From the IMG/VR virus record IMGVR_UViG_2974696732_000001: a DNA stretch of 64,000 nt. One strand, 5' to 3'. The DNA comes from a virus. Taxonomy: Duplodnaviria; Heunggongvirae; Uroviricota; Caudoviricetes. A program made the translations under genes and the position numbers. Position 1 is the stretch's first letter. Every line of letters begins with the position of its first letter. Below, one piece after another: positions 14,129 through 54,044 of this stretch. The notes beneath the pieces are model-generated. The model was not told the origin of the DNA and ran no database searches. It saw nothing but the letters and a program-made list of their open reading frames with translations.

Positions 14129-14157
14129 TTGACACTACTCAGAGGGTCTGCTAAGAT
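14129..14157 (+). promoter_or_regulatory. sigma70-like promoter TTGACA-N17-TAAGAT
   Basis: Upstream of the tRNA block at 14185. Confidence 0.5.
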
Positions 14158-14184
14158 TAAGTACAACGGCAGGGAAACCTGCTA

Positions 14185-14257
14185 TCAGGCACGGGGAAGA
14201 TGGTAATCCGTTGGCTTTGGAAGCCTAAGAAACTCGGTTCGATTCCGAGGTGCCTGA
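14185..14257 (+). tRNA. tRNA-like (TGG loop, imperfect stems; possible degenerate Pro copy)
   Basis: Acceptor TCAGGCA/TGCCTGA perfect, T-arm CTCGGTTCGATTCCGAG. The D and anticodon stems are imperfect. Confidence 0.45.
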
Positions 14258-14261
14258 CTTC

Positions 14262-14336
14262 CGGGATATAGCTCAGCTTGGTCAGAGCGCTGCATTTGGG
14301 ATGCAGAAGTCGCTGGTTCGAATCCAGTTATCCCGA
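14262..14336 (+). tRNA. tRNA-Pro(TGG)
   Basis: Acceptor CGGGATA/TATCCCG, anticodon stem CTGCA/TGCAG with loop TTTGGGA, T-loop TTCGAAT. Confidence 0.8.
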
Positions 14337-14338
14337 CT

Positions 14339-14416
14339 AGCCCCATAGGATAATGACTAATCCGCCTGTACGTGGAGTACAGGTAATACCGGTTAAATTC
14401 CGGACTAGGGGCTCCA
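14339..14416 (+). ncRNA. tRNA-like element with atypical T-loop (TTAAATT) and encoded CCA
   Basis: Acceptor-like AGCCCC/GGGGCT-CCA, hairpins CCTGTAC..GTACAGG and CCGG-TTAAATT-CCGG. Confidence 0.3.
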
Positions 14417-14421
14417 AACTT

Positions 14422-14485
14422 TTGGGTCGATTGAGACACGGTTATCTTACACAATGGATACTAGGTTCGATTCCTAGGGGTGCCG
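14422..14485 (+). ncRNA. noncanonical tRNA-like element (family member B)
   Basis: GGGTCGATTGAGACACGGTTATCTT plus a perfect T-arm CTAGGTTCGATTCCTAG, with no matching acceptor. A tail motif lies at 14546-14570. Confidence 0.3.
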
Positions 14486-14584
14486 TAAAAAGCGCTCTGT
14501 AAAGTCATCTCAGATGTGTGTGGTAGGATGACATAAGGTACTACACTCTCTCCGTTCTCGCCACTTACCTAAAGGAACTTTCTT

Positions 14585-15106
14585 ATGACGGTACTTCTAC
14601 GGACAATCCACGGAAGCCATCTGTATGGCCTTGCGCACGCAGGTTCAGACCGAGACATTTACGAAGTAATTGCCACGAAGCGAACCAAGCGAAAGCGCAA
14701 CATTAAGCAGACCATCGTGAATGGAGTTGACAAGACGGTCGTTGACCTCTCAACATTCATGCATATGGTTAATGAATGCGTACCTCAAGCACTTGAAGCG
14801 CTATGGACGCCGGTAGCGGAAGTTGATAAACTTCACGAATTCCGGACACAATATCGAGTGAATCGCGCCAAGATGAAGGAAGTATACATTCGAACCGCTC
14901 TGAACTTCGCCAAGAACGATGGAGTAAAGCAAAAGCGTCACGCTATTCGCCTGCTTCTCAATCTCGGTGCAGCTCTGGAGTATGGTAAATTCAATCCCCA
15001 GCTTTCCAATATGGACAAGTTCATCATAAACTCTTCCATGGGTGAAACTGGAGCATACGAGGATGTCTTCCTAGGCGTCCTTGATGAAGTACAAAAGTGG
15101 GTCTGA
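14585..15106 (+). CDS. putative minimal nucleotidyltransferase (Pol-beta superfamily-like)
   Basis: HGSHLYGLAHAGSDRDIY resembles the GS-x9-13-D-x-D NTase motif. Confidence 0.4.
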   Translation: MTVLLRTIHGSHLYGLAHAGSDRDIYEVIATKRTKRKRNIKQTIVNGVDKTVVDLSTFMHMVNECVPQALEALWTPVAEVDKLHEFRTQYRVNRAKMKEVYIRTALNFAKNDGVKQKRHAIRLLLNLGAALEYGKFNPQLSNMDKFIINSSMGETGAYEDVFLGVLDEVQKWV

Positions 15107-15200
15107 TGGCTCACGCCAATGGGGCGTATACCCTCACTCTGATAAAGTGTAGAAAGGTTAATCGGTTACATGTGGGTTCAATTCCCACCGTCCCAACTGG
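15097..15200 (+). ncRNA. noncanonical tRNA-like element (family member)
   Basis: GTGGGTCTGA..AATCGGTTACA..T-arm GTGGGTTCAATTCCCAC. Overlaps the stop of the upstream gene. Confidence 0.3.
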
Positions 15201-17053: not shown

Positions 17054-17054
17054 C

Positions 17055-17273
17055 ATGTGGACAGCGGGTGTAATCTTTTACCTCGCAGTCTGTGCGTACC
17101 TTTGCAAGAAGAAGGGGTGGCAGATTCACTACCTTCTTTGGGGAGCAGTTGGCGGGCTTATGCTTGCTACGCTGGTTCCTAGCTTGCCAGCGCAGACGAA
17201 GCAGACAATGGAAAACATGGGTAACGCTGTGGTCTCCATTGTTCAGAGTGCAGACATCGGTGGGCAGGGTTGA
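17055..17273 (+). CDS. small membrane protein (two TM helices)
   Basis: 72-aa hydrophobic ORF. Confidence 0.45.
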   Translation: MWTAGVIFYLAVCAYLCKKKGWQIHYLLWGAVGGLMLATLVPSLPAQTKQTMENMGNAVVSIVQSADIGGQG

Positions 17274-17298
17274 CAGTAACCCTGCTCCGCTGTAAGAT
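17270..17298 (+). promoter_or_regulatory. sigma70-like promoter TTGACA-N17-TAAGAT
   Basis: Upstream of tRNA-Ile(TAT). Confidence 0.5.
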
Positions 17299-17407: not shown

Positions 17408-17471
17408 GTGGGTCGAAGATGATTGTTTATCTTCAAATCAGCGTGTTGGGGGTTCGAATCCTCCCTGGGGA
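17408..17471 (+). ncRNA. noncanonical tRNA-like element (family member C; tail to about 17553)
   Basis: GTGGGTCGAAGAT, a 6-bp hairpin GAAGAT/ATCTTC and T-arm GGGGGTTCGAATCCTCC. No acceptor partner. Confidence 0.3.
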
Positions 17472-17579
17472 CTTTATTGTCCTCGGTAACTCAATGGCAG
17501 AGTAGCTGACATTGCCCGAATGGGCTAAACGATTGTCACGCCATATCCACATCATATAACTACTACTTAAGGACAAATA

Positions 17580-18344: not shown

Positions 18345-18371
18345 CCCGGTACAAAAGTACCGGGCATTTTT
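18345..18371 (+). terminator. rho-independent terminator after tRNA-Ser
   Basis: CCCGGTAC-AAAA-GTACCGGG + CATTTTT. Confidence 0.65.
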
Positions 18372-18598: not shown

Positions 18599-18987
18599 GC
18601 GCTGTTCTTCTCGGTGTGCTTATGCACTTCATCGGTGACTATCTGATTCAGACGGATTGGATGGCACAGTTGAAGACAAAGAAATGGCTGCCAGCCATCG
18701 TCCACGGTGTCACCTATGGTGTCCCGTTTGTCTTTGTCACCACGTCACTACCGGCTTTGTTTGTCATCATCGTGACACACATTGTCATTGACCATTACCG
18801 CCTAGCACGACATGTCGTCTGGGCAAAGAATCAACTGGCACCAAGGGAATGGCGCTATTCATGGTCTGAGGGAAACCTCACTGGATATCGCAATGACGCC
18901 CCACCTTGGTTGACAACTTGGTTGATGATTATTGCGGACAACACAATCCACATCATCATCAACACTCTGGCCATCCTCTATCTATGA
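18595..18987 (+). CDS. membrane protein
   Basis: 130 aa with several hydrophobic helices and conserved H/D residues. Confidence 0.45.
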   Translation: MSAVLLGVLMHFIGDYLIQTDWMAQLKTKKWLPAIVHGVTYGVPFVFVTTSLPALFVIIVTHIVIDHYRLARHVVWAKNQLAPREWRYSWSEGNLTGYRNDAPPWLTTWLMIIADNTIHIIINTLAILYL

Positions 18988-19024
18988 GGATGGCTTTTTG
19001 TGTTTTCAGTGATAAAATGAATGC

Positions 19025-20977: not shown

Positions 20978-21095
20978 GTTGACAGGTCTCCTTGAAGCTG
21001 CTACCGTAGAATTACACTAGAAAATATAAAGAAAAAGATGTTGAAAAACATCTAGAATTGGTTAGAAACCGGATAGTAATTAATTAGAAGGAAGT

Positions 21096-21383
21096 ATGAG
21101 ACTCTTTGAACTCCATAGAGACATCGATGAATCTGGTGTCTCTGGAACAGGAAAGGTCACTCAGGGAGTACAGTTTGACGATGGTCAGGTCTGTATGCTA
21201 TGGTTGACCGCATTGAAGGGGTATCCTCAAGTCTATCCACACATCGAACGAGTCCTTGAGATTCATGGACATGATGGTAAGACTCGTGTAGTATGGCTTG
21301 ATGAGAAGCCCGGCAGGACTGTGAAGGTTGCTGGTAAGGAAGTTCCAGTCCACACAGTTGACAGGTTCTCTGAGAACCGCTAA
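21096..21383 (+). CDS. hypothetical protein
   Basis: 95-aa ORF. Confidence 0.45.
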   Translation: MRLFELHRDIDESGVSGTGKVTQGVQFDDGQVCMLWLTALKGYPQVYPHIERVLEIHGHDGKTRVVWLDEKPGRTVKVAGKEVPVHTVDRFSENR

Positions 21384-21464
21384 AGTAGAACGTAGAGCAG
21401 GTCGGCAAGCAGGTAAGTGAGGAACACAGGAGCTTGAGCCACAACCCCTCCGCCTAGCTCTCTT

Positions 21465-22936: not shown

Positions 22937-24580
22937 ATGTCTAATGCACTTAACAACGCAGCTAAGGGTCTCAACAAGACTCCTCAGTCTGTCAAGGCCA
23001 AGGCAGGACAGGTCAAGAACAACGCTGGTGGATTCGTCTTCCAGGTTTCTGACCAGGCTCGCCTTGAGCGATTCCTTATCCTTGGTGTTGATGGTGGAAC
23101 CTATTACGTAAAGGAAGCCGACCACGCGCGTTCCAACGTACAGTTCCTCAATGACATGATTGAGCGAGACGAAGCCTCTGTACTGAACACAATCGTTGAT
23201 GTATCTGTCAATGGTCGTGCGTACAAGCAGTCTCCAGTCCTGTTCGCACTAGCCTCTGTCATTGTCCACGGACGTGACAAGCAGTCCGTCAAGGCTGTAT
23301 TTAATCGTGTTGTTCGTACTGGTACACACCTCTACGAGGTTGTGAACTACCTGAACACCATGGGTGGATGGGGTCGAGCAAAGCGTGAAATCGTTGCTAG
23401 TTGGTTCGAGCGCGATGCCGATAAGCTTGCTTACCAGATGGTCAAGTACCGTTCTCGTGAGTTTGCTGGCAACCGTTGGACCATGCGTGACGTAATGCGC
23501 AAGGCTCACCCACAGAACATGAACACTTCCGCTGCTGACTTTGCCCTCGGCAAGGAGCACGATGCTGTTGATGACCTTCGGGTTATTGAGGGTTTCAAGC
23601 TCATGCAGAAAGCTCAGTCTGTTGAAGACGTGCACAATGTTCTTCGGGCGTACGAGATGCTTCCTTGGGAGACTATCCCAACTCAGTTCCTCAAGGATTT
23701 GAGTGTCTGGAAGCGAATCTTCGCCAACGGTCAGCTTCGTGGTCAGGCTCTTGTCCGAAACATCACCCGTCTCGCACGGCTTGGTGCTTTCCAGGACATG
23801 CGTTTTGCTGCTGCTTATGCAGGACAGCTCACGAATCAGGAGATGATTGCGCAGACTCGTCTGCACCCAATCAACTTCCTGAACGCGACTGTTGTGTATA
23901 ACGATGGTCAGCTAAAGCGTGCCAAGGACCGCTGGGGCTACGAGAGTGAGCAGCGCGTAAAGGATTGGACGACTGAAAGTGTCATTGTCGATGCTCTCGA
24001 TGAGGGTTTCCACAAGGCATTCAAGACCGTCCAGCCTGCCGGTAAGCGAACGATGCTTGCTATTGATGTGTCAGGTTCCATGAGTGCAAAGGCTAACGGT
24101 CTCGACCTTAGCTGTGCTCAGGTTTCTGCTGCAATGGCAATGACCATCGCTCGTACCGAGCCAGCTCACATCATCCGTGGATTCACGTCTGATGGCTATG
24201 GTTGGAGGAACAGTGGTCTGACTGACCTCGGCATCTCCGCTCGTACAAACCTTGCTACGGCAATGCGTAATGTACAGCGAAGCAACTGGGGCGGCACAGA
24301 TTGTTCCCTCCCAATGCGTTGGGCTCTTGAGAACAAGGTAGAGGTTGACACCTTCGTGGTTATCACTGATAACGACACGTGGGCTGGCGACGTTCACCCA
24401 TTCCAGGCGCTCAAGGAGTACCGTAAGAAGACCGGAATCGACGCTCGCATGGCAGTTCTGGGAGTTCAGGCAACTGAATTCACCATCGCTGACCCAAGCG
24501 ACCGTGGAATGATGGACTTCGTAGGGTTTGACAGCAATGCACCTCGTGTGCTCGCTGACTTCTCCGCAGGTCGCATCTGA
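22937..24580 (+). CDS. rsr: Ro60/Rsr-like ribonucleoprotein (TROVE domain + vWA)
   Basis: 547 aa with an N-terminal TROVE-like region and a C-terminal vWA MIDAS motif AIDVSGSMS, matching the Ro60 architecture. Confidence 0.65.
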   Translation: MSNALNNAAKGLNKTPQSVKAKAGQVKNNAGGFVFQVSDQARLERFLILGVDGGTYYVKEADHARSNVQFLNDMIERDEASVLNTIVDVSVNGRAYKQSPVLFALASVIVHGRDKQSVKAVFNRVVRTGTHLYEVVNYLNTMGGWGRAKREIVASWFERDADKLAYQMVKYRSREFAGNRWTMRDVMRKAHPQNMNTSAADFALGKEHDAVDDLRVIEGFKLMQKAQSVEDVHNVLRAYEMLPWETIPTQFLKDLSVWKRIFANGQLRGQALVRNITRLARLGAFQDMRFAAAYAGQLTNQEMIAQTRLHPINFLNATVVYNDGQLKRAKDRWGYESEQRVKDWTTESVIVDALDEGFHKAFKTVQPAGKRTMLAIDVSGSMSAKANGLDLSCAQVSAAMAMTIARTEPAHIIRGFTSDGYGWRNSGLTDLGISARTNLATAMRNVQRSNWGGTDCSLPMRWALENKVEVDTFVVITDNDTWAGDVHPFQALKEYRKKTGIDARMAVLGVQATEFTIADPSDRGMMDFVGFDSNAPRVLADFSAGRI

Positions 24581-24614
24581 CAACAACCCCTCTTCGGAGG
24601 GGTTTTGTTGTTTA
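24581..24614 (+). terminator. rho-independent terminator after the Ro60-like gene
   Basis: CAACAACCCCTC-TTCG-GAGGGGTTTTGTTG + TTTAT. Confidence 0.65.
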
Positions 24615-24766: not shown

Positions 24767-24795
24767 TTGACAGGACGCTCGGCAGGGTGTAGAGT
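24767..24795 (+). promoter_or_regulatory. promoter TTGACA-N17-TAGAGT
   Basis: Consensus family member. The HNH gene ATG follows 8 nt after the -10, so the mRNA is near-leaderless. Confidence 0.55.
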
Positions 24796-27023: not shown

Positions 27024-27048
27024 CAGACAAGTCTAGCCACGCTAGACT
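27020..27048 (+). promoter_or_regulatory. promoter TTGACA-N17-TAGACT
   Basis: Upstream of tRNA-Glu(CTC). Confidence 0.45.
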
Positions 27049-27818: not shown

Positions 27819-27931
27819 CGTTGGAAGGTGTTAAGGTGAGAGAAAAGTTGGTCACTCAGTATCTCTGCTTATTGTGTAAGGTCTAACCAACCATCACACC
27901 GGGCACGAATCCGGCCCTTCCTCAGACTTAT

Positions 27932-29590: not shown

Positions 29591-29599
29591 ACGGGCTAT

Positions 29600-41851: not shown

Positions 41852-42310
41852 ATGGATTTTGTAGAACATTTGGGCTACCAATACCTAACTGACCTTCTGA
41901 CGGAAATCCGCGTAGGCCAGCAGGGATTGGAGGAACAAATGGCAGACCTAACAACCGAGGTTGCAAACCTCCGTGAGGCAGTAAGCGGTGTCAGTGCACG
42001 TGTTGACGCACTTGTTGGACCACTTACGGATGCCGTTAGAGAGGCACAGGATGCCCTTGCAGCAGAGCGTGAAGCAGCAGCTAATCTAGCAGCCGCAGAA
42101 GACGCTGAGGACGTTGAGCAGAACCGTCAGCTAGATGAGGCTAAGGCCGCTACTGACGCAGCTCTGGCAAATGCTCAGAGCGCAGCAGACGAAATCAGCA
42201 ATGAGACAGCACGTCTTAACTCTATTGCAAAGCCAGCCGAGGAGCCTACTCCAGAGCAGCCAACAGAGCCAACGCCAGATGAGCCATCTGGCCCATCAGT
42301 ACAGCTCTGA
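41852..42310 (+). CDS. Ala/Glu-rich coiled-coil protein
   Basis: 152-aa low-complexity coiled coil. Confidence 0.45.
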   Translation: MDFVEHLGYQYLTDLLTEIRVGQQGLEEQMADLTTEVANLREAVSGVSARVDALVGPLTDAVREAQDALAAEREAAANLAAAEDAEDVEQNRQLDEAKAATDAALANAQSAADEISNETARLNSIAKPAEEPTPEQPTEPTPDEPSGPSVQL

Positions 42311-42426
42311 GTTTGACCCCCCTTGACAACCAGCTTAGCCAAGTGTTAGGCTGGTTGTCTCATGCCGGGGAAGTTCTTTGGTAAGAACAGTCTCTCTATA
42401 GTGTTCATTTGATTGTGCACGGTCTC

Positions 42427-42455
42427 TTGACACCTCCTAGTAGCGCTGCTAGGAT
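42427..42455 (+). promoter_or_regulatory. promoter TTGACA-N17-TAGGAT
   Basis: Followed immediately by the minihelix at 42458. Confidence 0.45.
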
Positions 42456-42457
42456 GA

Positions 42458-42494
42458 CAGAGTAGAAAGGTTGGAGGTTCGATTCCTCCCTCTG
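42458..42494 (+). ncRNA. tRNA minihelix-like element directly downstream of a promoter
   Basis: CAGAG..CTCTG stem enclosing GGAGGTTCGATTCCTCC. Begins about 3 nt after the -10 at 42450-42455. Confidence 0.3.
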
Positions 42495-42590
42495 GCACTT
42501 AATGAAAACTATCAATTCGAAGAGTGGAAGGAGCGTAATGATTTACGACCCTGGTTAGTGTAGTCACTAACTTTGAAGGAGTGAATTATT

Positions 42591-42878
42591 ATGGCAACTG
42601 GCAAGGAGCGCGGCTACAAGGACTGGAAGCTTTCCAAGAACTTCAAGCGCAGCGCTCGAAACTACACTGAGTCCGACACCATTACTCGTGGTCGCAAGAA
42701 GAAAAACACGCGCAAGTGGTGCAAGGGCGTTGAGGGAAGGAAGCACACTCTCGCGCTTTACAACAAGTATTCCTGGAGCCACAGCCACAAGTGTGTTAAG
42801 TGTGGCAAGGAAATCTGGGGACCTGTTAATCGTGATGAGTTTGAGTTCGTTCCCATGCGTTGGGAAGACTTCCACTGA
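42591..42878 (+). CDS. small basic zinc-binding protein
   Basis: HKCVKCGKEIWG. Confidence 0.4.
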   Translation: MATGKERGYKDWKLSKNFKRSARNYTESDTITRGRKKKNTRKWCKGVEGRKHTLALYNKYSWSHSHKCVKCGKEIWGPVNRDEFEFVPMRWEDFH

Positions 42879-43063: not shown

Positions 43064-43328
43064 ATTGGCCGGAAACAAGAACAGCCGTAAGAAGTGGCTT
43101 TGCCTTGACTGTGGTGTTGACACTGGCAAGATTGGCGAACACTTCTTTCTCGACATGAAGGTCTGGTCCTTGACAGGGCTTGGGCACGAAGGTATGCTTT
43201 GTGTAGAGCACGTTGAGGAGCGAATCGGCAGGCGTCTTGTTCCGGCCGATTTTACTTCTGCCTACATCAACCGCTTGAACTTCGGGTTCAAGTCTGATAG
43301 GCTCATCTCACGAATCAAGAACAACTAG
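43056..43328 (+). CDS. hypothetical zinc-ribbon protein
   Basis: CLDCGVDTGK..CVEH. Confidence 0.4.
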   Translation: MDKLAGNKNSRKKWLCLDCGVDTGKIGEHFFLDMKVWSLTGLGHEGMLCVEHVEERIGRRLVPADFTSAYINRLNFGFKSDRLISRIKNN

Positions 43329-43336: not shown

Positions 43337-44434
43337 ATGAAGTTCACCAAGATTTTCTCTCAGGACTTGCTTGACCAGATGGTCAACGAGGGTTTTGTTC
43401 GGGTGCAGACTCATCCGGTTCTCCCTCTGCGAATTCTGAACTACTCTGAGAAGGCTCAGTTTGCGGGTCGATGGAACGCCTGCACGCTTGCGTGCCGTGG
43501 TCTCATCATCGACCAGGACGACAATGTAATTGCTCGTCCTTTCGAGAAGTTCTTCAACATGGGGGACTCTCACGCTGCTGACATCGACTGGGATGCTCCG
43601 GTTGAGGTGACGGACAAGAAGGATGGCTCCATGGGCATCCTTTACTCGATTCGTCCTTACAACCCTGACATGCCGCCTTACGGTCACGAGTACAGCTTTG
43701 CTACCCGTGGTAGTTTTGCTTCTGACCAGGCAATTCACGCTACTAAGCTTTGGCTTGAGCGTTACAAGAACACTGCCGTGCCTCATGACTGGACGTTCAT
43801 TTTCGAGATTGTCTACCCTGACAACCGAATCGTCCTGGATTACGGAGACATGGACGACCTTATCCTTCTGGGTGCGGTCAACAAGGAGCACGGTTACGTG
43901 TACGGTCCTCGTGAGGCTGCGGCTTTGCTGGATTGGCAGGGGCCGGTAACCGAGGTGTTCGATTACAAGAACATTCACGAGGCTGTTGGTGCACCTTACC
44001 GCAGCAACGCTGAGGGTCTTGTTATTCGTTCTGGTGGCAAGATGGTCAAGCTCAAGCAGGCTGATTACATTGAGCTTCATCGACTCATTTCAATGCTTTC
44101 AGAGCGCTCTGTATGGAGTCAGCTCACTGAGGGCAAGACGATTCTGGAGATTTGTGAGGCTCTGCCTGACGAGTTTCACCAGTTCGTCAAGGATGTCGGT
44201 GGCAAGTTGCTCAGTGACTTCGAGCGCATTGAGATTGAGGTGCGTGGAATCTTCCACAACCTTCTTTCTTCAATGGACGAGGGGTTCACTCGACGCGATT
44301 TCGCAATGAAGGCCAACGGAGTTGACCACTACCGCAGCCACATGTTCAACCTGCTTGACGGGAAGGACATCAGTGAGCTAATCTGGAAGCAGTTGAAGCC
44401 CGCAGCCAAGAGTGAGGATGGATACCCGCAGTGA
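43337..44434 (+). CDS. RNA ligase, T4 Rnl1-like
   Basis: ACRGLII and EKFFNMGD match the Rnl1 N-terminal region. Motif I is KKDGSMG (the KxDG lysine adenylylation site). Confidence 0.75.
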   Translation: MKFTKIFSQDLLDQMVNEGFVRVQTHPVLPLRILNYSEKAQFAGRWNACTLACRGLIIDQDDNVIARPFEKFFNMGDSHAADIDWDAPVEVTDKKDGSMGILYSIRPYNPDMPPYGHEYSFATRGSFASDQAIHATKLWLERYKNTAVPHDWTFIFEIVYPDNRIVLDYGDMDDLILLGAVNKEHGYVYGPREAAALLDWQGPVTEVFDYKNIHEAVGAPYRSNAEGLVIRSGGKMVKLKQADYIELHRLISMLSERSVWSQLTEGKTILEICEALPDEFHQFVKDVGGKLLSDFERIEIEVRGIFHNLLSSMDEGFTRRDFAMKANGVDHYRSHMFNLLDGKDISELIWKQLKPAAKSEDGYPQ

Positions 44435-45059: not shown

Positions 45060-45080
45060 GGGCCCTCCGGGGCCCTTTGT
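45060..45080 (+). terminator. terminator hairpin
   Basis: GGGCCC-TCCG-GGGCCC + TTTGTTG. Confidence 0.5.
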
Positions 45081-45092: not shown

Positions 45093-45121
45093 TTGACACC
45101 ATCCTGGGCATCGACTAGAGT
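45093..45121 (+). promoter_or_regulatory. promoter TTGACA-N17-TAGAGT (pnk)
   Basis: GGGGTTGACACC..TAGAGTAGAGC, consensus family. Confidence 0.6.
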
Positions 45122-45149: not shown

Positions 45150-46055
45150 ATGGCTCAGCTTCTCATCCTCCGGGGCGTTCCTGGATGTGGAAAGTCCACT
45201 TTCGCTCACCAGTGGCTCAAGGAAGGTGAGCGGCGTGCTCGTGTAAACCGTGACGACATCCGTATGCAGTTCTTCGGTAAGGAGACTGGTGTGGATGAAG
45301 ACATGGTTACCAAGATTGAGCACCAGCAGGTAGACATGCTTCTCAAGTCTGGATACTCTGTGGTTGTCGATGACACCAACATCAGGTTCCAGTACATCAC
45401 AGCTTTCGTTAAGATTGCTGCGAAGCATGGCGTGCCTGTTGCAGTAAAGCAGTTCGATGTGGACCTCAAGACTGCCATTGAGCGCAATGCACACCGTGCT
45501 TCTCAGGGTGGTCGTGATGTCCCTACGCACGTCATCGAGAGGATGCACAAGTCTCTCAAGTCTTCTGGTCAGTACACTCGGAAGCACATCGAAGATGCTT
45601 GGGGAACTTCTCAGTCTGTGCAGCCTTACGTTCGGCCAGTAGGCAAGCGAAAGGTTTACCTCTTTGACATTGATGGCACTCTTGCCCAGATGTCTGACAG
45701 GTCTCCTTTTGAGTGGAACAAGGTTGGCAATGACGACCCCCGTCGTCAGGTTGTTCTGACTGCTCAGGCGCTTGCTGAGGCGGGCTACGAGATTGTTGTA
45801 ATGAGCGGTCGAGACTCTGTCTGCCGTGATGAGACAATTGCGTGGCTGGAGTTCTATGACATCCCCTTTGTTGACCTCTTCATGAGGGCAGAGGGTGACA
45901 TGCGTAAGGACAACATCGTTAAGCAGGAGCTGTTTGACAAGCACATTCGTGACTTCTACGATGTTGTGGCCGTCTTTGACGACCGGCAGCAAGTGGTTGA
46001 CATGTGGCGTGCGATGGGCGTAGACTGCTTCCAGGTCGCGCCTGGAGATTTCTGA
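45150..46055 (+). CDS. pnk: polynucleotide 5'-kinase/3'-phosphatase (T4 Pnk-like)
   Basis: P-loop GVPGCGKST kinase plus a HAD phosphatase DIDGTLA..SGR. Start trimmed to ATG 45150, downstream of the promoter at 45093-45121. Confidence 0.8.
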   Translation: MAQLLILRGVPGCGKSTFAHQWLKEGERRARVNRDDIRMQFFGKETGVDEDMVTKIEHQQVDMLLKSGYSVVVDDTNIRFQYITAFVKIAAKHGVPVAVKQFDVDLKTAIERNAHRASQGGRDVPTHVIERMHKSLKSSGQYTRKHIEDAWGTSQSVQPYVRPVGKRKVYLFDIDGTLAQMSDRSPFEWNKVGNDDPRRQVVLTAQALAEAGYEIVVMSGRDSVCRDETIAWLEFYDIPFVDLFMRAEGDMRKDNIVKQELFDKHIRDFYDVVAVFDDRQQVVDMWRAMGVDCFQVAPGDF

Positions 46056-46059
46056 GACT

Positions 46060-46086
46060 GGCGGACCTTCGGGTCCGCCCTTCTTG
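46060..46086 (+). terminator. terminator after pnk
   Basis: GCGGACC-TTCG-GGTCCGC + CCTTCTTG. Confidence 0.5.
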
Positions 46087-46097
46087 GGTAGAAGGGC

Positions 46098-46126
46098 TTG
46101 ACAGCACAGACTGAGCCCGATAGAGT
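46098..46126 (+). promoter_or_regulatory. promoter TTGACA-N17-TAGAGT
   Basis: Upstream of the lipoprotein gene at 46163. Confidence 0.6.
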
Positions 46127-46639: not shown

Positions 46640-46679
46640 TTGACAGAGTGCGTGCCTTAGTGATAAACTAAGTGCACAA

Positions 46680-46768: not shown

Positions 46769-46960
46769 ATGGGAAGCAGAATTCAGGTCAAATATTTCGT
46801 TGACACGAAGACCATGACCGACTATTCTGGCAAGAAAGGTCAGGCGCTCACAAGAGAGCGCGGTGGTAAGTGGGGAGTAAGGATTGATGGTCGAGAAGGG
46901 CCCAATCTAATCATCCCTGAAAGTCAGCTCAAGGAAGTTTCCTGGGAAGAAGGAGAATAA
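46769..46960 (+). CDS. hypothetical protein
   Basis: ORF 46763..; KOW-like. Confidence 0.4.
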   Translation: MGSRIQVKYFVDTKTMTDYSGKKGQALTRERGGKWGVRIDGREGPNLIIPESQLKEVSWEEGE

Positions 46961-47777: not shown

Positions 47778-48002
47778 ATGGAATATCAACTATCAGAGGC
47801 TCCAGAAGGTTATACCTGGGAGCTACAGACGACAGATGGTCCGTTCATGGGCACAGAAGGCGTGAACTACGAGCTGAACCTTTCAAAGAATGGAAGGGTC
47901 GTAGATACACGAGGAGTGTTTGTTCCAAAGGCGAAAGAGGCAGATACAGTCTCTTTCATCAAGGCTATGGAGCAGAGCATTCGAATGAGCCTCGATAACT
48001 GA
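47778..48002 (+). CDS. hypothetical protein
   Basis: Trimmed from 47724 to clear a tRNA. Confidence 0.4.
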   Translation: MEYQLSEAPEGYTWELQTTDGPFMGTEGVNYELNLSKNGRVVDTRGVFVPKAKEADTVSFIKAMEQSIRMSLDN

Positions 48003-48010
48003 GGCTTTAT

Positions 48011-49100: not shown

Positions 49101-49357
49101 TGGGCTGGGCAGGAGGAACAAGCTACTTTGACGGACCTCTAGACCTCATGCTAGAGTATGTCCCAGAAGACAAGCGCAAGGAAGTCATTGAGAAGCTGTA
49201 CCGCACCATCAGAGATGGTGACTGGGATACAGTGGATGAGTCTTCCTACTTCAACTTGCTTGTGAAGTATGATATTGATGGGTATGGTGAATACAAAACC
49301 GACCCTGACTATCTTGCTGAACTCACAGAAGAAGAATTGGCAGAGCTAAATGACTAA
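49100..49357 (+). CDS. hypothetical protein
   Basis: Trimmed from 49040. Confidence 0.4.
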   Translation: MGWAGGTSYFDGPLDLMLEYVPEDKRKEVIEKLYRTIRDGDWDTVDESSYFNLLVKYDIDGYGEYKTDPDYLAELTEEELAELND

Positions 49358-49661: not shown

Positions 49662-50029
49662 ATGTGGGAGGCCAATTCTTATTGGCCACCTGCGCAAGTA
49701 CAACGGCAATGACATCAAACTTTGCCCGGCATGTAATGCTGAGGCCATGATTGAGGAGATTAGGAATCGTGACAGGTCCGAGGGCCTTGACAGCACTGAT
49801 TCTGACGGGTACGATTCTTAACATAGTGTTCCTCGCACTCGCTGCACAGGCAATTAATAGCACGATAGAAGAAATCGGCAATGACATACAGCGAAATGCG
49901 TGTAGACATGCGAATCCGGAACTTGAAGACTGGTCTCAAAGCGACTATTGCAACCCTTGAAAAGGGTAAGTTTCGGATTGTAGATGAGAACGGTCATGTA
50001 GAAGATTTCGACCGGTACGATGCCGGAGA

Positions 50030-50437: not shown

Positions 50438-50443
50438 GTTGAC

Positions 50444-50683
50444 ATGACTGACATGAAGCGATACGATGTGATGGTTCGGGTTGAGTTCACCTGGGAAAAT
50501 GAATACGGTGATGAACGAACAACCTGGGCCACAAACATCGGTCAGTATACGTCAAACAATCCTGACTCACTGCCTGAGTACGTGGCAGCACACCACATAA
50601 AGTTTGAACCTCCTGGAGGGGAAAACGTAAGGCGAGTGCTGTTCTCAGAAATCACACAATATACTCTCAACGAGGTGGACTAA
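50444..50683 (+). CDS. hypothetical protein
   Basis: 79-aa ORF. Confidence 0.45.
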   Translation: MTDMKRYDVMVRVEFTWENEYGDERTTWATNIGQYTSNNPDSLPEYVAAHHIKFEPPGGENVRRVLFSEITQYTLNEVD

Positions 50684-50702: not shown

Positions 50703-50733
50703 CCGGTCTTTCTAACAAAGACCGGGCTTTTCT
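50703..50733 (+). terminator. rho-independent terminator
   Basis: CCGGTCTTT-CTAAC-AAAGACCGG + GCTTTTCTG. Confidence 0.6.
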
Positions 50734-50743
50734 GTCTCTAGCC

Positions 50744-51058
50744 ATGGAACTTAGTTTGAAGAGTAACATGAAGCAGAGGCATGGAGCTGTCGTAGTAAAG
50801 GGAGGTCGAGTCCTCTCACGTGGCTGGAACATATTGAAGAATGACCCGAACAACGTGAGCCACGAACACATTACCCGTTTTTGCTCGGTACATGCTGAGC
50901 GCATGGCGCTGGCACGCTGCAAGAACGCTGTTGGTGCTACTGTTTACGTGGCACGAAACAAGTCCGGCAGAGCATGTCACTCCAAGCCTTGTGATGCATG
51001 TCATGCTGCTCTCGAAGCGGCCGGTGTTGCAAGGGTTGTGTACACGACTGGGCTCTGA
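50744..51058 (+). CDS. cytidine/deoxycytidylate deaminase-like zinc enzyme
   Basis: HAERMAL and PCDACHAAL form the CDA-fold zinc ligand pattern H(A/C)E...PCxxC. Confidence 0.6.
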   Translation: MELSLKSNMKQRHGAVVVKGGRVLSRGWNILKNDPNNVSHEHITRFCSVHAERMALARCKNAVGATVYVARNKSGRACHSKPCDACHAALEAAGVARVVYTTGL

Positions 51059-51104
51059 TAGACTCAACTACGTAAGCGGCTCACAACTACCAAGGAGATG
51101 AATC

Positions 51105-53015
51105 ATGGAGCCTACTGCTATTTACGCCGAGCGCAAGGGTAACCTTGCTGGTGAGACCGTCGCAATGAGCGTTGATGCTGCAAGCATGGCGCACGTCATG
51201 AGCATCCTGACCGACCTCTATTCAGACCCTGTTCTGGCTGTCATTCGGGAATACAGCACCAATGCCTTTGACTCTCACGTTGAGGCTGGTGTCAGTAAGC
51301 CCATCGAGGTCTCTCTTCCCAATGCAATGTCTCCCTTCTTCAAGGTTCGAGACTACGGTGTTGGACTGTCTGTTGAAGACATTCGCAATGTCTATTCCAA
51401 GTACGGTGCTTCCACCAAGCGTTCCACCAATGAGCAGGTTGGTATGCTTGGCCTGGGATGCAAGTCTGCATTGACCTACACTCAGCAGTTCACTGTTCGT
51501 TCTGTCAAGGATGGGCAGATGGCTCACGTTGCCATTTCTCGTACTGAGGATGGCTCTGGTGTCATGCAGGTTGTTCACACTCAGGAGGTGGACGAGCCGA
51601 ATGGTGTGGAGATTTCTGTTCCTGTCCACCGTCAGAACGATTTCGAATGGAAGGCCAAGGAATTCTTCAAGTTCTGGGAGCCTGGCACCGTTCTGATTGA
51701 TGGTGTTGAGCCTGCCCGATTTGATGGTCTCAAGCTGAGCGAGAACATCACCCTTGTTGAAGGCAGCAATACGGATTACATTGTCATGGGCAATGTTGGC
51801 TATCGAGTCAGCAATGAACATACTCTGTATCGACCCCAGAATGGCTATTACTACAGCCGTAACTTTGGCATCATTGCCAAGGTTGCCATTGGTTCTGTGA
51901 ACTTCACGCCTTCTCGTGAAGACCTTCACTACACCGAGCACACTTTGAAGACGCTTGAGGGTGTTCGTGAGGAAATCAAGAATGCTTTCGTTGACACCAT
52001 TCAGGCTGCCGTTGATGCAAAGCCTGACCACCCTTCTGCTCGTGCTGAGTGGGAGAAGTGGCGTCAGCTTTCTGGCCTCAATCAGGATGCCATCACCTAC
52101 AAGGGTGAGCGCATTCCGACTGAAATTTCTCAGCCTCACATTCGGTACCGACAGGACTACGGCCGGAATTCTGTGAATTTTCATCACAGCATTCGTTTCA
52201 ATGAGGTCAGTCGATACGTCCTTATTAGCGGATATGAAGGAGAGCCCTCTACTGCTCACCGTGCCAAGATGCGTCTGTGGGCAGAGCAGAACAATGTAAG
52301 GCTTGGTGGCTTCATCATTACCAAGTCTGTCATTGAGCAGAAGTGGTTTAAGGCCGAGCACTCTGTCACGTGGGAAGAGGTTTTTGCTACAAAGAAGCCT
52401 CGTGTTCCTCGTACAGAGTCTGTTGAAACTTTCTCTGTCCTGTCTTCTGGTCAGCGCTATGCGCAGATGCAGCGAATCGCTGACCTTGACAAGACGAAGA
52501 CCATCATCGTATGGTCTAATGGTGACGACAGGTACGAGGACGTGATTGGCCAGATTGTCAGGCTTCACGGCAATGCACATGCTGTTCGTCTTCCCAAGAA
52601 TCGCTGGGACAAGTTCCTGCGTGAGAACGCAAATGCGGTAAAGGTTGATGACGCAGTTTCCTCCATGGTTAAGAAGGCTTTTGACAAGCTCTCTGACGAT
52701 GAAAAGCTGAGCATGAGCATCGACTACTACGACCGTGGTACGCTGATGCGACTCGATGCCAAGCGCATTGACGACCCTGAGCTTGCGCGGTACACTAGGG
52801 TGGTACAGAGCATCCGCAAGTCAGACGCTATCGACAACTTCAACGAGATTGTCGGCGTCTGCTCTCGACTGCACATCGACCGTCCTACGGTTGACAAGGT
52901 GGAGAGTCCCAAGGTAAAGTATCCTCTACTGGCTGCGGTTGACAGCGCGCTTGGTCTTGCGGCCGAGCATTTCTACCTCTACGCAAACACTCTCTACTCC
53001 AAGGAGAACAACTAA
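51105..53015 (+). CDS. rIIA: rIIA-like protein (N-terminal GHKL ATPase)
   Basis: Bergerat-fold N box EYSTNAFDS and G1 box DYGVGL. 636 aa, immediately followed by a gene of about 320 aa, as in T4 rIIA-rIIB. Confidence 0.5.
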   Translation: MEPTAIYAERKGNLAGETVAMSVDAASMAHVMSILTDLYSDPVLAVIREYSTNAFDSHVEAGVSKPIEVSLPNAMSPFFKVRDYGVGLSVEDIRNVYSKYGASTKRSTNEQVGMLGLGCKSALTYTQQFTVRSVKDGQMAHVAISRTEDGSGVMQVVHTQEVDEPNGVEISVPVHRQNDFEWKAKEFFKFWEPGTVLIDGVEPARFDGLKLSENITLVEGSNTDYIVMGNVGYRVSNEHTLYRPQNGYYYSRNFGIIAKVAIGSVNFTPSREDLHYTEHTLKTLEGVREEIKNAFVDTIQAAVDAKPDHPSARAEWEKWRQLSGLNQDAITYKGERIPTEISQPHIRYRQDYGRNSVNFHHSIRFNEVSRYVLISGYEGEPSTAHRAKMRLWAEQNNVRLGGFIITKSVIEQKWFKAEHSVTWEEVFATKKPRVPRTESVETFSVLSSGQRYAQMQRIADLDKTKTIIVWSNGDDRYEDVIGQIVRLHGNAHAVRLPKNRWDKFLRENANAVKVDDAVSSMVKKAFDKLSDDEKLSMSIDYYDRGTLMRLDAKRIDDPELARYTRVVQSIRKSDAIDNFNEIVGVCSRLHIDRPTVDKVESPKVKYPLLAAVDSALGLAAEHFYLYANTLYSKENN

Positions 53016-53981
53016 ATGTCCAACCTCCAGTACAGCCTGATTCGCAACTCTGGTGGAGAGGTCATCACCGTTTTCGCAAACGGCGAGATGTACTCTGCAC
53101 TGGATACTCACCCGAACTGGGCTGGCATCAAGGCTGGTGCCGAGGCTGATGACCCTACGGTCATTGACCTTTTCGACATCGGCCGTACTGCTCAGATTCG
53201 CTTCGAGCGTCTTTCTGAGCGAGTCACTGTTCGAAATGGCAAGGTTCACTGGGACAACGTTCCTGTGCATTCTGCCCTGACCGAGCAGGTTGTCCGATTC
53301 ATCGAGAATGGCCAGGAAGACTTCGGTCCTCTCGTCGCCTTCTTCGAGAAGATTCAGACGAACGAGAACGAGCATAGCCGTGAGCAGCTTTTCGACTGGC
53401 TCAAGATTCATGACTTCACGATTCTTCCCAACGGTAACTTCATTGGTTACAAGGGTGTTCGTGTAGTTGGTGACTCTTACGAGAGCATCAGCCACGGTAC
53501 TGCAATCAGCAATGATGTGGAGTACACTGGTGCCATTCCTAACCCGATTGGTGCTGTCGTGGAGATGCCTCGTGACCAGGTTCAGCATGACCCTGCCGTG
53601 GGGTGCCACGCTGGTCTGCATGTTGGTACCTGGGAGTACGCCTCTGGGTTCGCTCAGGGTGCTGTGCTCAAGGTCGAGGTGAATCCTCGTGACGTTGTTT
53701 CTGTTCCTACCGATTGCGGTTGGCAGAAGCTTCGTACCTGCCGATACACTGTTCTTGAGGTCATTGACGCTCCTGTTGATGGTCCTCTGGACATGGACCC
53801 TGCGATTGCCGATGATGGCGGTCAGGCTCTTTGGGCGGAAGCTGAGGAGCACTACGCTGACATGGCTGCGCAGAGCACCAATCCCATCGTGAAGACGATG
53901 GCTGGAGTGGTCGATACCCGTTTCAACCACCTTCGTCAGAAGCGTGATGCAAACGGCCGATTCATTCCTAAGAGCAAGTGA
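53016..53981 (+). CDS. rIIB: rIIB-like protein
   Basis: Called from size and position after the rIIA-like gene; no motif. Confidence 0.4.
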   Translation: MSNLQYSLIRNSGGEVITVFANGEMYSALDTHPNWAGIKAGAEADDPTVIDLFDIGRTAQIRFERLSERVTVRNGKVHWDNVPVHSALTEQVVRFIENGQEDFGPLVAFFEKIQTNENEHSREQLFDWLKIHDFTILPNGNFIGYKGVRVVGDSYESISHGTAISNDVEYTGAIPNPIGAVVEMPRDQVQHDPAVGCHAGLHVGTWEYASGFAQGAVLKVEVNPRDVVSVPTDCGWQKLRTCRYTVLEVIDAPVDGPLDMDPAIADDGGQALWAEAEEHYADMAAQSTNPIVKTMAGVVDTRFNHLRQKRDANGRFIPKSK

Positions 53982-53985
53982 TGTT

Positions 53986-54005
53986 GGGCCCCTTCGGGGG
54001 CCTTT
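53986..54005 (+). terminator. terminator after the rIIB-like gene
   Basis: GGGCCCC-TTCG-GGGGCC + TTTCG. Confidence 0.5.
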
Positions 54006-54014
54006 CGTCGTCTC

Positions 54015-54044
54015 TTGACATGGTGCTCTACAAGATGTTAGAGT
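54015..54044 (+). promoter_or_regulatory. promoter TTGACA-N18-TAGAGT
   Basis: Upstream of the metallophosphoesterase gene. Confidence 0.5.

Follow-up and report, generated by a model that had tools for sequence, protein, structure and literature searches.

The motif family and its conservation

The window analysed here is a stretch of 64,000 nucleotides (nt) of viral DNA (IMG/VR record IMGVR_UViG_2974696732_000001), and our subject is a promoter-like motif, TTGACA-N17-TAGAGT, that recurs throughout it. The window is 100% identical to positions 58708-122707 of the record of Streptomyces phage Paradiddles (MF347637.1), a member of cluster BE1 and of the genus Samistivirus with S. griseus as host. 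All the annotated genes of the window lie on the + strand, and ARAGORN finds among them 42 tRNAs and a tmRNA, to which the GenBank record adds a few. That record carries no regulatory features, and promoters are not mentioned in the genome announcement covering Paradiddles (PMC5764925).

The exact string TTGACA-N17-TAGAGT is present in five copies in the window (24767, 32563, 35340, 45093 and 46098), all on the + strand, where 0.01 would be expected. The relaxed pattern TTGAC-N18-TANNNT has 39 matches, 37 of them on the + strand, against an expectation of 1.8. TTGACA alone occurs 72 times on the + strand versus 20 times on the − strand (the median for composition-matched permuted hexamers is 13), and at 38 of the 72 + strand copies a TANNNT stands 17 or 18 nt further on (expected 2.3%, p=5e-43). 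This coupling was absent from every permuted composition-matched hexamer tested. An iterated position weight matrix (PWM; site score cut-off 14 or more) returned 55 sites on the + strand of the window and none on the − strand. A preliminary description of this DNA had recognized the promoter family, which proves real, but its count of at least 14 copies was too low in view of the 38 exact TTGACA plus TANNNT sites and the 55 PWM sites. The family does populate the range 14129-54044 given there, but it extends outside, for example to 12877, 11955 and 8004 upstream and to 57863 downstream.

Among the 55 sites the −35 hexamer is TTGACA in 41, TTGACG in 11, TTGACT in one and a hexamer with one other mismatch in two. 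The first T of the −10 hexamer is present in 53/55 sites, and the A at position 2 and the T at position 6 in 55/55; position 3 is G in 23, A in 14, C in 10 and T in 8, position 4 is A in 24, G in 15, T in 12 and C in 4, and position 5 is G in 31, C in 12, A in 11 and T in one, which gives the consensus TAGAGT. The spacer is of 17 nt in 35 sites, 18 nt in 18 and 16 nt in two. Counted genome-wide on + strand sites, spacers of 17 nt (30) and 18 nt (12) stand out from those of 15, 16, 19 and 20 nt (at most 2 each), and spacers of 15, 19 and 20 nt are at background in four phages. The flanks show a mild preference for G/C just 5' of the −35 hexamer and for AGTA 3' of the −10 hexamer. This weak preference is what remains of the flank conservation claimed earlier, which was overstated: GGGTTGACACC is found solely at 32560 and 45090, TAGAGTAGTAAC solely at 32586 and TAGAGTAGTA at three sites. 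Recent duplication of four archetype copies was rejected, their spacers being unrelated. A 6-mer enrichment of intergenic over coding sequence (CDS), used in place of MEME, did contain TAGAGT, AGAGTA and GAGTAG, with words that contain stop codons, depleted in CDSs, dominating the top of the list; it is much weaker than the two-hexamer test and was not relied upon.

Genome-wide, the PWM gives 63 hits, each in the orientation of the genes around it. Of these, 56 fall in the 72-kb right arm (record 50.1-122.7 kb), where the opposite strand has none; the 33.7-kb structural and lysis block has a single hit, and the leftward-transcribed region and the terminal repeats have two each, all on the − strand, which is there the gene strand. 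In the window, sites are 3.2 times denser in intergenic DNA than in CDSs (1.42 versus 0.44 per kb), so that the intergenic enrichment on which the preliminary description had made the family depend is observed. The distance from the −10 hexamer to the next gene start has a median of 98 nt, versus 202 nt for random positions (p=2e-5).

Three comparators were analysed over their corresponding 50-kb regions: Sushi23 and Mildred21, both Samistivirus, and StarPlatinum, which belongs to cluster BE2 (Karimacvirus). Each has 23-28 sites at spacer 17, 6-13 at spacer 18 and almost none at others, and none has an opposite-strand site at spacers 16-18. In ungapped orthologous alignments of the Paradiddles sites, the −35 hexamer together with T1, A2 and T6 of the −10 hexamer showed 0/153 substitutions at intergenic sites, against 60/439 in the spacer and upstream flank (Fisher p=8e-9); at sites embedded in CDSs the figures are 10/306 and 139/920. 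Comparator spacers carry indels at 20979 and 45093, yet the spacing there remains 17-18 nt (counted by eye). A looser scan, with some false negatives where indels shift coordinates, found the motif kept in 3/3 comparators for 20 of the 55 sites and in 2/3 for 16. The hexamers are thus under purifying selection, and the spacer is free to drift.

The motif resembles the promoters of the primary sigma factor of the host. Transcription-start maps of S. coelicolor give TANNNT for the −10 and NTGACC for the −35 element (PMC4895711), and the HrdB consensus on which synthetic promoter libraries were based is TTGACN and TASVDT (PMC12809767); TAGAGT fits the latter −10 consensus. The phage annotation names neither a sigma factor nor an RNA polymerase. 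In a Pfam scan of 50 of the larger proteins, most of them annotated as hypothetical, no corresponding domain is among the 25 families listed of 29 matched, a negative that does not extend to proteins under about 100 amino acids or to remote homologues. From the primary-sigma consensus and this negative scan we infer that the host HrdB holoenzyme reads the sites directly. The motif therefore very probably marks some 55 related promoters of the primary-sigma class (sigma-70 family; HrdB in Streptomyces), read by the host polymerase and driving the non-structural right arm. In the proposed scheme, host RNA polymerase with HrdB would bind the −35 and −10 hexamers and start about 7 nt 3' of the latter. 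It would thereby transcribe the array of tRNAs and tmRNA, rII, numerous small open reading frames (ORFs) and the genes for replication, recombination and RNA repair, the last comprising those for the CCA-adding enzyme, Ro, RNA ligase and pnk. Each tRNA block or small gene group would have its own entry point, transcripts would continue into the next block and tRNAs would be cut out of longer transcripts. The timing is probably early or middle, because the structural genes are nearly without the motif.

Sites, hairpins and transcription units

The 55 sites are listed with their hexamers and spacer, PWM score, context and retention in the comparators (3/3, all three). Those called promoter-like are less certain.

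7569-7597, +: promoter-like TTGACG-17-TACTAT, low confidence; score 16.8; in methyltransferase CDS, 564 nt to next start; outside comparator loci
8004-8033, +: promoter TTGACG-18-TAGAGT; score 21.5; 3' end of methyltransferase CDS, 128 nt 5' of thymidylate kinase gene
10213-10242, +: promoter-like TTGACG-18-TAGACT, low confidence; score 18.5; deep in terminase CDS; kept in Mildred21, StarPlatinum
11359-11386, +: promoter TTGACA-16-TAATGT; score 17.0; 94 nt 5' of HNH gene (11480); kept 3/3
11955-11984, +: promoter TTGACA-18-TAGTGT; score 20.4; 55 nt 5' of gene 94; kept in Sushi23, Mildred21
12877-12905, +: promoter TTGACA-17-TAAAGT(AGTA), tRNA-Gly/Gln/Trp block; score 25.7; 98 nt 5' of tRNA-Gly; kept 3/3, spacer varies
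13644-13673, +: promoter-like TTGACA-18-TAAAGT; score 21.3; in gene 99; kept in Sushi23 only
13944-13972, +: promoter-like TTGACG-17-TAAAGT; score 19.9; end of gene 99, 214 nt 5' of tRNA-Pro; kept in Sushi23
14129-14157, +: promoter TTGACA-17-TAAGAT, two tRNA-Pro genes; score 17.7; intergenic, 29 nt 5' of tRNA-Pro; hexamers kept 3/3, spacer diverges
17270-17298, +: promoter TTGACA-17-TAAGAT, tRNA-Ile(tat) and YrlA-like RNA; score 19.5; intergenic, 33 nt 5' of tRNA-Ile; kept in Sushi23, Mildred21; TTGACA-18-TAAGCT there in StarPlatinum
20979-21007, +: promoter TTGACA-17-TACCGT; score 23.2; intergenic; kept in Sushi23, Mildred21 despite spacer indels
21175-21204, +: promoter-like TTGACG-18-TATGGT, low confidence; score 16.2; intergenic; not kept in comparators
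21358-21386, +: promoter TTGACA-17-TAAAGT, tRNA-Asp block; score 24.8; 79 nt 5' of tRNA-Asp; kept in Sushi23 (as TAGAGT), Mildred21
24767-24795, +: promoter TTGACA-17-TAGAGT; exact consensus, score 22.3; 80 nt 5' of gene 122, about 160 nt 3' of the terminator after the Ro gene; kept in Mildred21
27020-27048, +: promoter TTGACA-17-TAGACT, tRNA-Glu(ctc); score 25.4; 42 nt 5' of tRNA; kept in comparators
27361-27389, +: promoter TTGACA-17-TACAGT(AGTA), tRNA-Glu(ttc); score 25.6; 26 nt 5' of tRNA, in small annotated ORF 129; kept 3/3
27690-27719, +: promoter TTGACG-18-TAGAGT, tRNA-Val(tac)-to-Arg(tct) block; score 20.5; 29 nt 5' of tRNA-Val; absent at orthologous place in comparators
29486-29514, +: promoter TTGACA-17-TATGTT, tRNA-Ala(tgc)/Lys(ctt); score 18.5; 86 nt 5' of tRNA-Ala; kept 3/3
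30271-30299, +: promoter-like TTGACA-17-TATCGT; score 20.1; in gene 142; kept 3/3, coding and promoter constraint inseparable
30860-30887, +: promoter TTGACA-16-TAGGAT; score 16.0; intergenic, −10 end about 6-7 nt before gene 145 ATG; kept in Sushi23, StarPlatinum
32563-32591, +: promoter GGGTTGACACC-...-TAGAGTAGTAAC, archetype of the preliminary description; exact consensus, score 24.8; 60 nt 5' of gene 149; kept 3/3
32744-32772, +: promoter TTGACA-17-TAATGT; score 20.7; 44 nt 5' of gene 150; kept in Sushi23, Mildred21
33156-33185, +: promoter TTGACA-18-TAGTAT, tRNA-Arg(cct); score 16.4; 46 nt 5' of tRNA; kept in Sushi23 only
33306-33334, +: promoter TTGACG-17-TAGAGT, tRNA-Ile(gat)/Ala/Lys/Lys block; score 20.8; −10 end 15 nt before tRNA-Ile; same promoter-tRNA unit in Mildred21, other upstream context
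34221-34249, +: promoter-like ATGACA-17-TAGGGT, low confidence; score 17.2; imperfect −35
34366-34394, +: promoter TTGACA-17-TAAGCT, tRNA-Arg(tcg); score 17.3; −10 end about 8-9 nt before tRNA; absent from Sushi23, StarPlatinum
34574-34603, +: promoter TTGACA-18-TATGCT; score 17.2; 75 nt 5' of gene 157; kept 3/3
35340-35368, +: promoter TTGACA-17-TAGAGT(AGTA), tRNA-Met-to-Phe block; exact consensus, score 23.6; 209 nt 5' of tRNA-Met; kept in comparators
37646-37674, +: promoter TTGACA-17-TAATGT, adjoining tRNA-Cys (tRNA-Cys/Thr); score 22.2; 7 nt between −10 and tRNA 5' G at 37682
39322-39350, +: promoter-like TTGACA-17-TACTAT; score 17.9; in DnaQ-like CDS; kept 3/3, within coding sequence
39505-39534, +: promoter TTGACG-18-TAGCAT, tmRNA; score 18.2; 43 nt 5' of tmRNA; same arrangement in Sushi23
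39774-39802, +: promoter-like TTGACA-17-TACTGT; score 19.9; within 3' part of tmRNA; conserved, but part of the tmRNA gene
39915-39943, +: promoter TTGACA-17-TACAGT; score 20.8; intergenic, 141 nt 5' of hydrolase gene 176; kept in Sushi23, spacer diverged
40647-40675, +: promoter-like TTGAAA-17-TATTGT, low confidence; score 16.0; in CDS; not kept
42323-42352, +: promoter TTGACA-18-TAGGCT, tRNA-like RNA B; score 20.4; −10 end about 11-12 nt before 42364; kept in Sushi23, LilMartin, Wofford, Yaboi, Riptide; TTGACA-18-TAGACT in Jay2Jay and Naboo
42427-42455, +: TTGACA-17-TAGGAT inside RNA B, promoter function doubtful; score 21.2
43170-43198, +: promoter TTGACA-17-TATGCT; score 19.7; 139 nt 5' of RNA ligase gene; kept 3/3
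44355-44384, +: promoter TTGACG-18-TAATCT; score 19.8; 47 nt 5' of gene 187; kept 3/3
45093-45121, +: promoter GGGTTGACACC-...-TAGAGT, polynucleotide kinase gene (pnk); exact consensus, score 22.5; 29 nt 5' of pnk; kept in Sushi23, Mildred21 (gapped spacer alignment; Sushi23 17 nt by eye), StarPlatinum scored as keeping
45934-45962, +: promoter-like, low confidence, in pnk; score 17.0; −35 lost in StarPlatinum (TTCGAT), changed in Sushi23 (TTGACC)
45997-46026, +: promoter-like TTGACA-18-TAGACT; score 17.8; 3' end of pnk; kept 3/3, within coding sequence
46098-46126, +: promoter TTGACA-17-TAGAGT(AGTA), top-scoring copy; exact consensus, score 26.5; 37 nt 5' of gene 191; kept in Mildred21, StarPlatinum with diverged 17-nt spacer
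46640-46669, +: promoter TTGACA-18-TAAACT, tRNA-Leu(gag); score 16.8; −10 end about 10-11 nt before tRNA; kept in Sushi23; Mildred21, StarPlatinum have instead TTGACC/T-18-TATACT about 40 nt 5' of tRNA-Leu
46800-46828, +: promoter-like TTGACA-17-TATTCT; score 19.2; in gene 193; kept in Sushi23 only
49128-49157, +: promoter-like TTGACG-18-TAGAGT; score 19.5; in gene 204; kept 3/3
49787-49815, +: promoter TTGACA-17-TACGAT; score 20.6; intergenic, 66 nt 5' of gene 206; kept in Sushi23, Mildred21
50439-50467, +: promoter-like TTGACA-17-TACGAT; score 18.5; gene 207/208 junction; hexamers kept in Sushi23, Mildred21, spacer diverges
52486-52515, +: promoter-like, low confidence, in rIIA; score 18.1; −10 lost in Mildred21
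52768-52796, +: promoter-like TTGACG-17-TACACT, in rIIA; score 16.5; kept in Sushi23, Mildred21
52891-52920, +: promoter TTGACA-18-TAAAGT; score 22.2; 96 nt 5' of rIIB; kept in Sushi23, Mildred21
54015-54044, +: promoter TTGACA-18-TAGAGT, phosphoesterase gene; score 17.6; 32 nt 5' of gene; kept in Sushi23, Mildred21, diverged spacer
54782-54810, +: promoter-like TTGACA-17-CAGACT, low confidence; score 18.9; −10 without T1; not kept
57863-57891, +: promoter TTGACT-17-TAGAGT(AG), gene 223 and tRNA-Gln(ttg); score 18.7; intergenic; kept 3/3
59030-59058, +: promoter-like TTGACA-17-CAGTGT, low confidence; score 16.4; −10 without T1; not kept
61371-61400, +: promoter-like TTGACA-18-TAACGT; score 19.4; in gene 233; similar sequence in StarPlatinum

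The preliminary description had these promoters precede tRNA blocks, pnk and the HNH gene. About 16 sites do lie directly 5' of RNA genes, and the site at 45093 is indeed 29 nt upstream of pnk. The connection with HNH genes is indirect: 37646 is followed by tRNA-Cys, tRNA-Thr and only then by the HNH gene at 37889, and 11359 lies 94 nt upstream of another at 11480. About two thirds of the sites precede protein genes, over the whole right arm, among them pnk, RNA ligase (43170), rIIB (52891), phosphoesterase (54015), thymidylate kinase (8004) and numerous small ORFs. No RNA gene is more than 1.65 kb downstream of a same-strand member of the family, and some blocks of 5-7 tRNAs have one promoter in common.

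Only about ten terminator-like hairpins are convincing, against about 55 promoters. The sliding-window hairpin scan was noisy (299 regions, mostly in CDSs), and only clear GC-rich intergenic hairpins were used:

18345-18364, +: intrinsic-terminator-like hairpin after tRNA-Ser(tga), CCCGGTACAAAAGTACCGGG then CATTTTTG
18969-18995, +: intrinsic-terminator-like hairpin after gene 112, 10-pair stem then TTTTTGTGTTT
24585-24604, +: intrinsic-terminator-like hairpin after Ro-like gene, AACCCCTCTTCGGAGGGGTT then TTGTTGTTT
29969-29991, +: intrinsic-terminator-like hairpin after tRNA-Lys(ctt), 9-pair stem then TTTTTATATG
32511-32530, +: terminator-like hairpin after band-7 gene, CCCCCGACTTCGGTTGGGGG then TTTT; about 30 nt 5' of the promoter at 32563
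45060-45075, +: terminator-like hairpin, GGGCCCTCCGGGGCCC then TTTG; 18 nt 5' of the promoter at 45093
46060-46079, +: terminator-like hairpin, GGCGGACCTTCGGGTCCGCC; −23 kcal/mol for the enclosing 38 nt (46051-46088); about 19 nt 5' of the promoter at 46098
50703-50725, +: intrinsic-terminator-like hairpin after gene 208, 9-pair stem then GCTTTTCTGT
53986-54002, +: terminator-like hairpin, GGGCCCCTTCGGGGGCC then TTTCG; −22.3 kcal/mol for the enclosing 40 nt (53980-54019); about 12 nt 5' of the promoter at 54015

At four terminator-promoter junctions (32511/32563, 45060/45093, 46060/46098 and 53986/54015) hairpins stand about 10-35 nt upstream of the strongest promoters. With so few terminators and so many promoters, the transcription units are predicted to be nested and read through rather than to form insulated modules. 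Consequently, of the earlier proposal that host sigma70 promoters drive modular transcription of each tRNA block, the first half is strongly supported by spacing, co-orientation, selection on the hexamers and the match to HrdB, but the second holds only in part, as the sites are not specific to tRNAs, terminators are few and some tRNA blocks share one promoter.

The copy at 42427 and the RNAs of the array

One copy of the motif, at 42427, lies inside an unannotated tRNA-like RNA of 134 nt (42364-42497, +), here called RNA B. Acceptor, D and T arms are present, the anticodon arm is replaced by a stretch of about 72 nt, and the RNA scores 32.8 bits against the Rfam tRNA model (gathering score 29). 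ARAGORN finds no tRNA locally, even in intron mode, and its 763-nt call of a 'tRNA-Pro with intron' is spurious. RNA B is tRNA-like but not a tRNA, because the canonical 17-nt anticodon stem-loop with an anticodon is missing. Its identification as YrlA or another Rfam family was rejected: no model apart from that for tRNA has a match in 42300-42600 at E<=1, and both ends of the RNA lie in the acceptor stem, whereas those of a YrlA RNA form the Ro-binding stem.

Homologous sequence is found in 62 phage records, nearly all those listed being without annotation at the locus. At this place Mildred21 has a different annotated RNA, a 129-nt 'tRNA-OTHER', and Sushi23 appears to have both types in tandem. 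Eight versions, drawn from four genera, were aligned (Paradiddles, LilMartin, Riptide, Jay2Jay, Wofford, Yaboi, Naboo and Coruscant). Pairing holds in 95.7% of cells, and 14 of the 26 pairs differ at both positions (6/7 in the acceptor stem, 3/5 in the T arm and 3/6 in the D arm); 0/500 shuffles equalled this, and slid controls gave about 50% pairing. The segments GTGCAC and TAGTAGCGCTGCTA are invariant, as is the central domain of about 30 nt that they delimit. The core motif has no match in 185,579 bacterial and archaeal genomes, so RNA B was not copied from a host; nine IMG/VR contigs carry the motif, which was found only in BE-type phages.

The footprint of the 42427 copy is opposite to that of the family, in which hexamers are fixed and spacers free. 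Its 17-nt 'spacer' is almost invariant across the four genera, and the 14-nt core TAGTAGCGCTGCTA extends into the −10; elsewhere in the family, spacers diverge by about 15%. Its '−35' is TTGACA, TTGACG, TTGCGG or TTGCGA, varying even within Samistivirus (TTGCGG/TTGCGA in Jay2Jay, Naboo and Coruscant), and its '−10' (TAGGAT, TAGAAT or TAAGAT) forms the 3' strand of an 8-bp hairpin that is 100% paired, with two compensatory pairs. This inverted pattern indicates that RNA constraints explain the conservation. The preliminary description had this copy feed straight into a T-arm minihelix acting as a processing signal. The T arm GGAGGTTCGATTCCTCC (42471-42487) does follow, but it is the 3' part of RNA B, and the minihelix role is unsupported because the partner strand of the acceptor stem lies upstream of 42427 and the '−10' lies within an invariant hairpin.

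We therefore lean, by a modest degree, towards the view that the 42427 copy is conserved as part of the tRNA-like RNA, defining no minihelix and serving as no processing signal, with its resemblance to a promoter secondary. It sits within the 72-nt insert of an Rfam tRNA match, the promoter-like site at 42323 ends about 12 nt upstream of RNA B, TAGTAGCGCTGCTA is invariant in eight phages while the −35 varies, and the fully paired hairpin is accompanied by the two-sided changes in the acceptor stem. On the other hand, the Paradiddles copy is a perfect TTGACA-17-TAGGAT to which polymerase may well bind, all 8 phages retain the 17-nt spacing together with T1, A2 and T6 of the −10, and Paradiddles has no other family promoter between RNA B and genes 183-185, where StarPlatinum and Wofford have one just upstream of those genes. 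The site may thus have a dual role, as a secondary promoter as well.

Some promoters stand very close to the RNA that follows. Between the −10 and the 5' G of tRNA-Cys there are 7 nt in Paradiddles and Mildred21 and, by annotated start, 10 nt in StarPlatinum; in Sushi23, with TATAATG, the tRNA begins 6-8 nt downstream depending on the −10 hexamer chosen. The predicted start consequently falls on or near the 5' end of the tRNA. Short gaps are also seen at tRNA-Arg(tcg) (about 8 nt), tRNA-Leu(gag) (about 10 nt) and RNA B (about 11 nt). The close-set promoters at 37646, 34366 and 46640 imply tRNAs that would be leaderless or nearly so, and the mRNA of gene 145 (promoter at 30860) may be leaderless. 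RNA B itself lies among the Ro, RNA ligase and pnk genes. A more speculative possibility, which we hold only tentatively, is that some sites do more than initiate the usual polycistronic transcripts: tRNAs might start in near-mature form and need little or no RNase P, and RNA B might belong to a new class of tRNA mimics with an internal promoter for the RNA ligase operon.

Several other RNA features accompany the array. A stable GC-rich tetraloop hairpin ends 2-5 nt before the mature 5' end of 46% of the RNA genes, versus 11% at random (p=2e-4). These pre-tRNA and pre-tmRNA hairpins (scored in the 24 nt upstream; e.g. 14168-14183, 29579-29597, 33769-33788 and 47988-48008), often followed by (C/T)AT, are also present in related phages. 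They could protect the 3' end of the upstream transcript once RNase P has cut, or terminate transcription without needing a U-tract. An unannotated element at 17422-17536, just 3' of tRNA-Ile(tat) and 5.4 kb 5' of the Ro60-like gene, gives a full-length Rfam YrlA match below threshold (34.8 bits, where the gathering score is 69; local E=2.3e-6). It is probably the Y RNA of this phage, which fits the presence of a Ro gene and the YrlA RNAs published for other phages (PMC4201824). A second long tRNA-like element at 28422-28549 (Rfam tRNA 29.1 bits, 71-nt insert) is called tRNA-Arg(gcg) with a 34-nt intron by ARAGORN in intron mode, and its orthologues are annotated discordantly as a 127-nt 'tRNA-Thr' (Sushi23) and a 107-nt 'tRNA-Tyr' (Mildred21). 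Further elements are a truncated one of about 80 nt with acceptor and T-arm at 27931-28008 (tmRNA model, 34.7 bits), a 55-nt mini-tRNA-like element at 56585-56639 with a hairpin 3' of it, an Rfam tRNA match of 30.8 bits at 15120-15196 between the nucleotidyltransferase and FtsK genes, and isolated GGTTCGAnTCC T-arm hairpins at 14460-14480 and 33899-33920.

Genes of RNA maintenance are interspersed among the tRNAs: a nucleotidyltransferase, likely the CCA-adding enzyme (14585-15106), a Ro60-like protein (22937-24580), RNA ligase (43337-44434) and pnk (45150-46055). Promoter-like sites lie 29 nt 5' of pnk and 139 nt 5' of the RNA ligase gene, and further upstream on the same strand for the nucleotidyltransferase and Ro genes. 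The Pfam scan of 50 of the larger proteins of the whole genome also gave individual matches to cREC_REC (cyclic-phosphate processing receiver), the C-terminal domain of ribosomal L7/L12 and NADAR.

Host polymerase, rival readings and known systems

Several points weigh against taking the list as a set of promoters read by the host. Of the 38 exact sites, 22 lie within annotated CDSs, and part of the list is probably non-functional because several CDS sites are far from a gene start or poorly conserved (10213, 45934, 52486, 54782 and 59030). The PWM was trained on the same window with the opposite strand as null, and serves as a site list, not as independent proof. The copies at 42427 and 39774 are within structured RNA genes, where RNA constraints explain the conservation. 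Two phage proteins, a regulator of the WhiB family (window 55592-55900; Pfam Whib, E=3.3e-11) and an Lsr2-like protein encoded in the terminal repeat, could alter the use of these promoters. Finally, the searchable literature yielded neither start-site maps nor RNA-seq or binding experiments for phages of cluster BE. What the analysis shows directly is how the motif is enriched, oriented, spaced and distributed, how it is conserved and how it matches the host consensus; initiation is inferred from sequence alone, and so are sigma identity and promoter strength.

Large lytic phages often reprogram the host polymerase, and the sites could be promoters for a phage-encoded or phage-modified sigma or specificity factor instead of the unmodified HrdB holoenzyme. 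The WhiB-family and Lsr2-like proteins would suit this alternative, as would the roughly 80% of genes without assigned function (PMC5764925). We nevertheless regard it as improbable: the consensus is that of a canonical primary sigma with the optimal 17-nt spacing, it matches the host promoter surveys, and no sigma-70 region 2/4 or RNA polymerase domain is among the 25 families listed of the 29 matched in the 50 larger proteins. Least credible of all is that the motif is no promoter but a repeated site bound by a phage regulator, a signal for recombining or mobilizing tRNA cassettes or a side effect of coding-strand codon usage. In its favour, more than half of the exact copies are in CDSs, TTGACA by itself is enriched only about 1.6-fold in intergenic over coding DNA, and some promoter-tRNA units appear to move jointly between phages (33306 with tRNA-Ile). 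Against it, the TANNNT coupling is unique to TTGACA among composition-matched hexamers, the hexamers are conserved while the spacer drifts, and the 17/18-nt rule, full co-orientation and closeness to gene starts are a signature of RNA polymerase recognition, unlike a dimeric regulator site or a codon artefact.

Promoters of the host type are the expected biology for a large lytic phage. The sites provide a transcription map for the poorly studied 130-kb Streptomyces phages, with likely polymerase entry points and tRNA blocks having their own promoters; some other mode of expression must serve the structural genes and the terminal repeat. Compact, near-consensus and conserved, the promoters are candidate strong constitutive parts for Streptomyces engineering. 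The unannotated RNAs of the array are more unusual than the promoters themselves, one 'promoter' being part of a tRNA-like RNA supported by covariation.

Strohl reportedly gave in 1992 the consensus TTGACPu-N16-18-TAGPuPuT. Streptomyces HrdB promoters share with the phage sites the −35 TTGACN, the −10 TANNNT and a spacer of 16-18 nt with 17 as the optimum (PMC4895711, PMC12809767). The −35 of host promoters is, however, poorly conserved (NTGACC in 59% of start sites), whereas TTGACA is found in 41/55 phage sites. The phage sites also lie in DNA of 49% G+C, compared with about 72% in the host, at a density of about one per 1.3 kb.

The early promoters of T4, and of T5 and SPO1 with their long terminal repeats, are comparable to those of Paradiddles in that many near-consensus host-sigma sites are co-oriented with small early or tRNA gene blocks and terminators are few. 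The announcement of the BE1 genomes likens their repeats of about 11 kb to those of T5 and SPO1 (PMC5764925). In the terminal repeat of Paradiddles (record 1-10.8 kb, outside the window), most intergenic gaps carry, on the − strand, a GC-rich hairpin, one to three copies of (C)CGGACA, a weak −35 (TTGnnn or TAGACA) and (G)TGTAGACT. This module would be a second promoter family, distinct from that of the window and perhaps immediate-early or regulator-controlled. Unlike in T5 and SPO1, the terminal-repeat genes use another architecture (TGTAGACT as −10, a hairpin before each gene), and TTGACA-N17-TAGAGT is concentrated in the right arm and scarce in the repeat.

The YrlA RNAs, tRNA mimics of genomes that encode Ro60, phages included (PMC4201824), are another point of comparison, as Paradiddles likewise encodes Ro. 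RNA B differs from them in having its ends in the acceptor stem and in matching the tRNA model only, and the YrlA-like match is at the separate locus 17422-17536. A further parallel for the promoters, among actinobacteriophages, is found in the SigA-like promoters of Cluster O mycobacteriophages, which were also predicted from sequence, are conserved in the cluster and in some cases are placed for leaderless transcripts (PMC4351075). Those phages have 8-9 such promoters per genome, whereas the number in Paradiddles is about 60, and many of these serve tRNA genes specifically.

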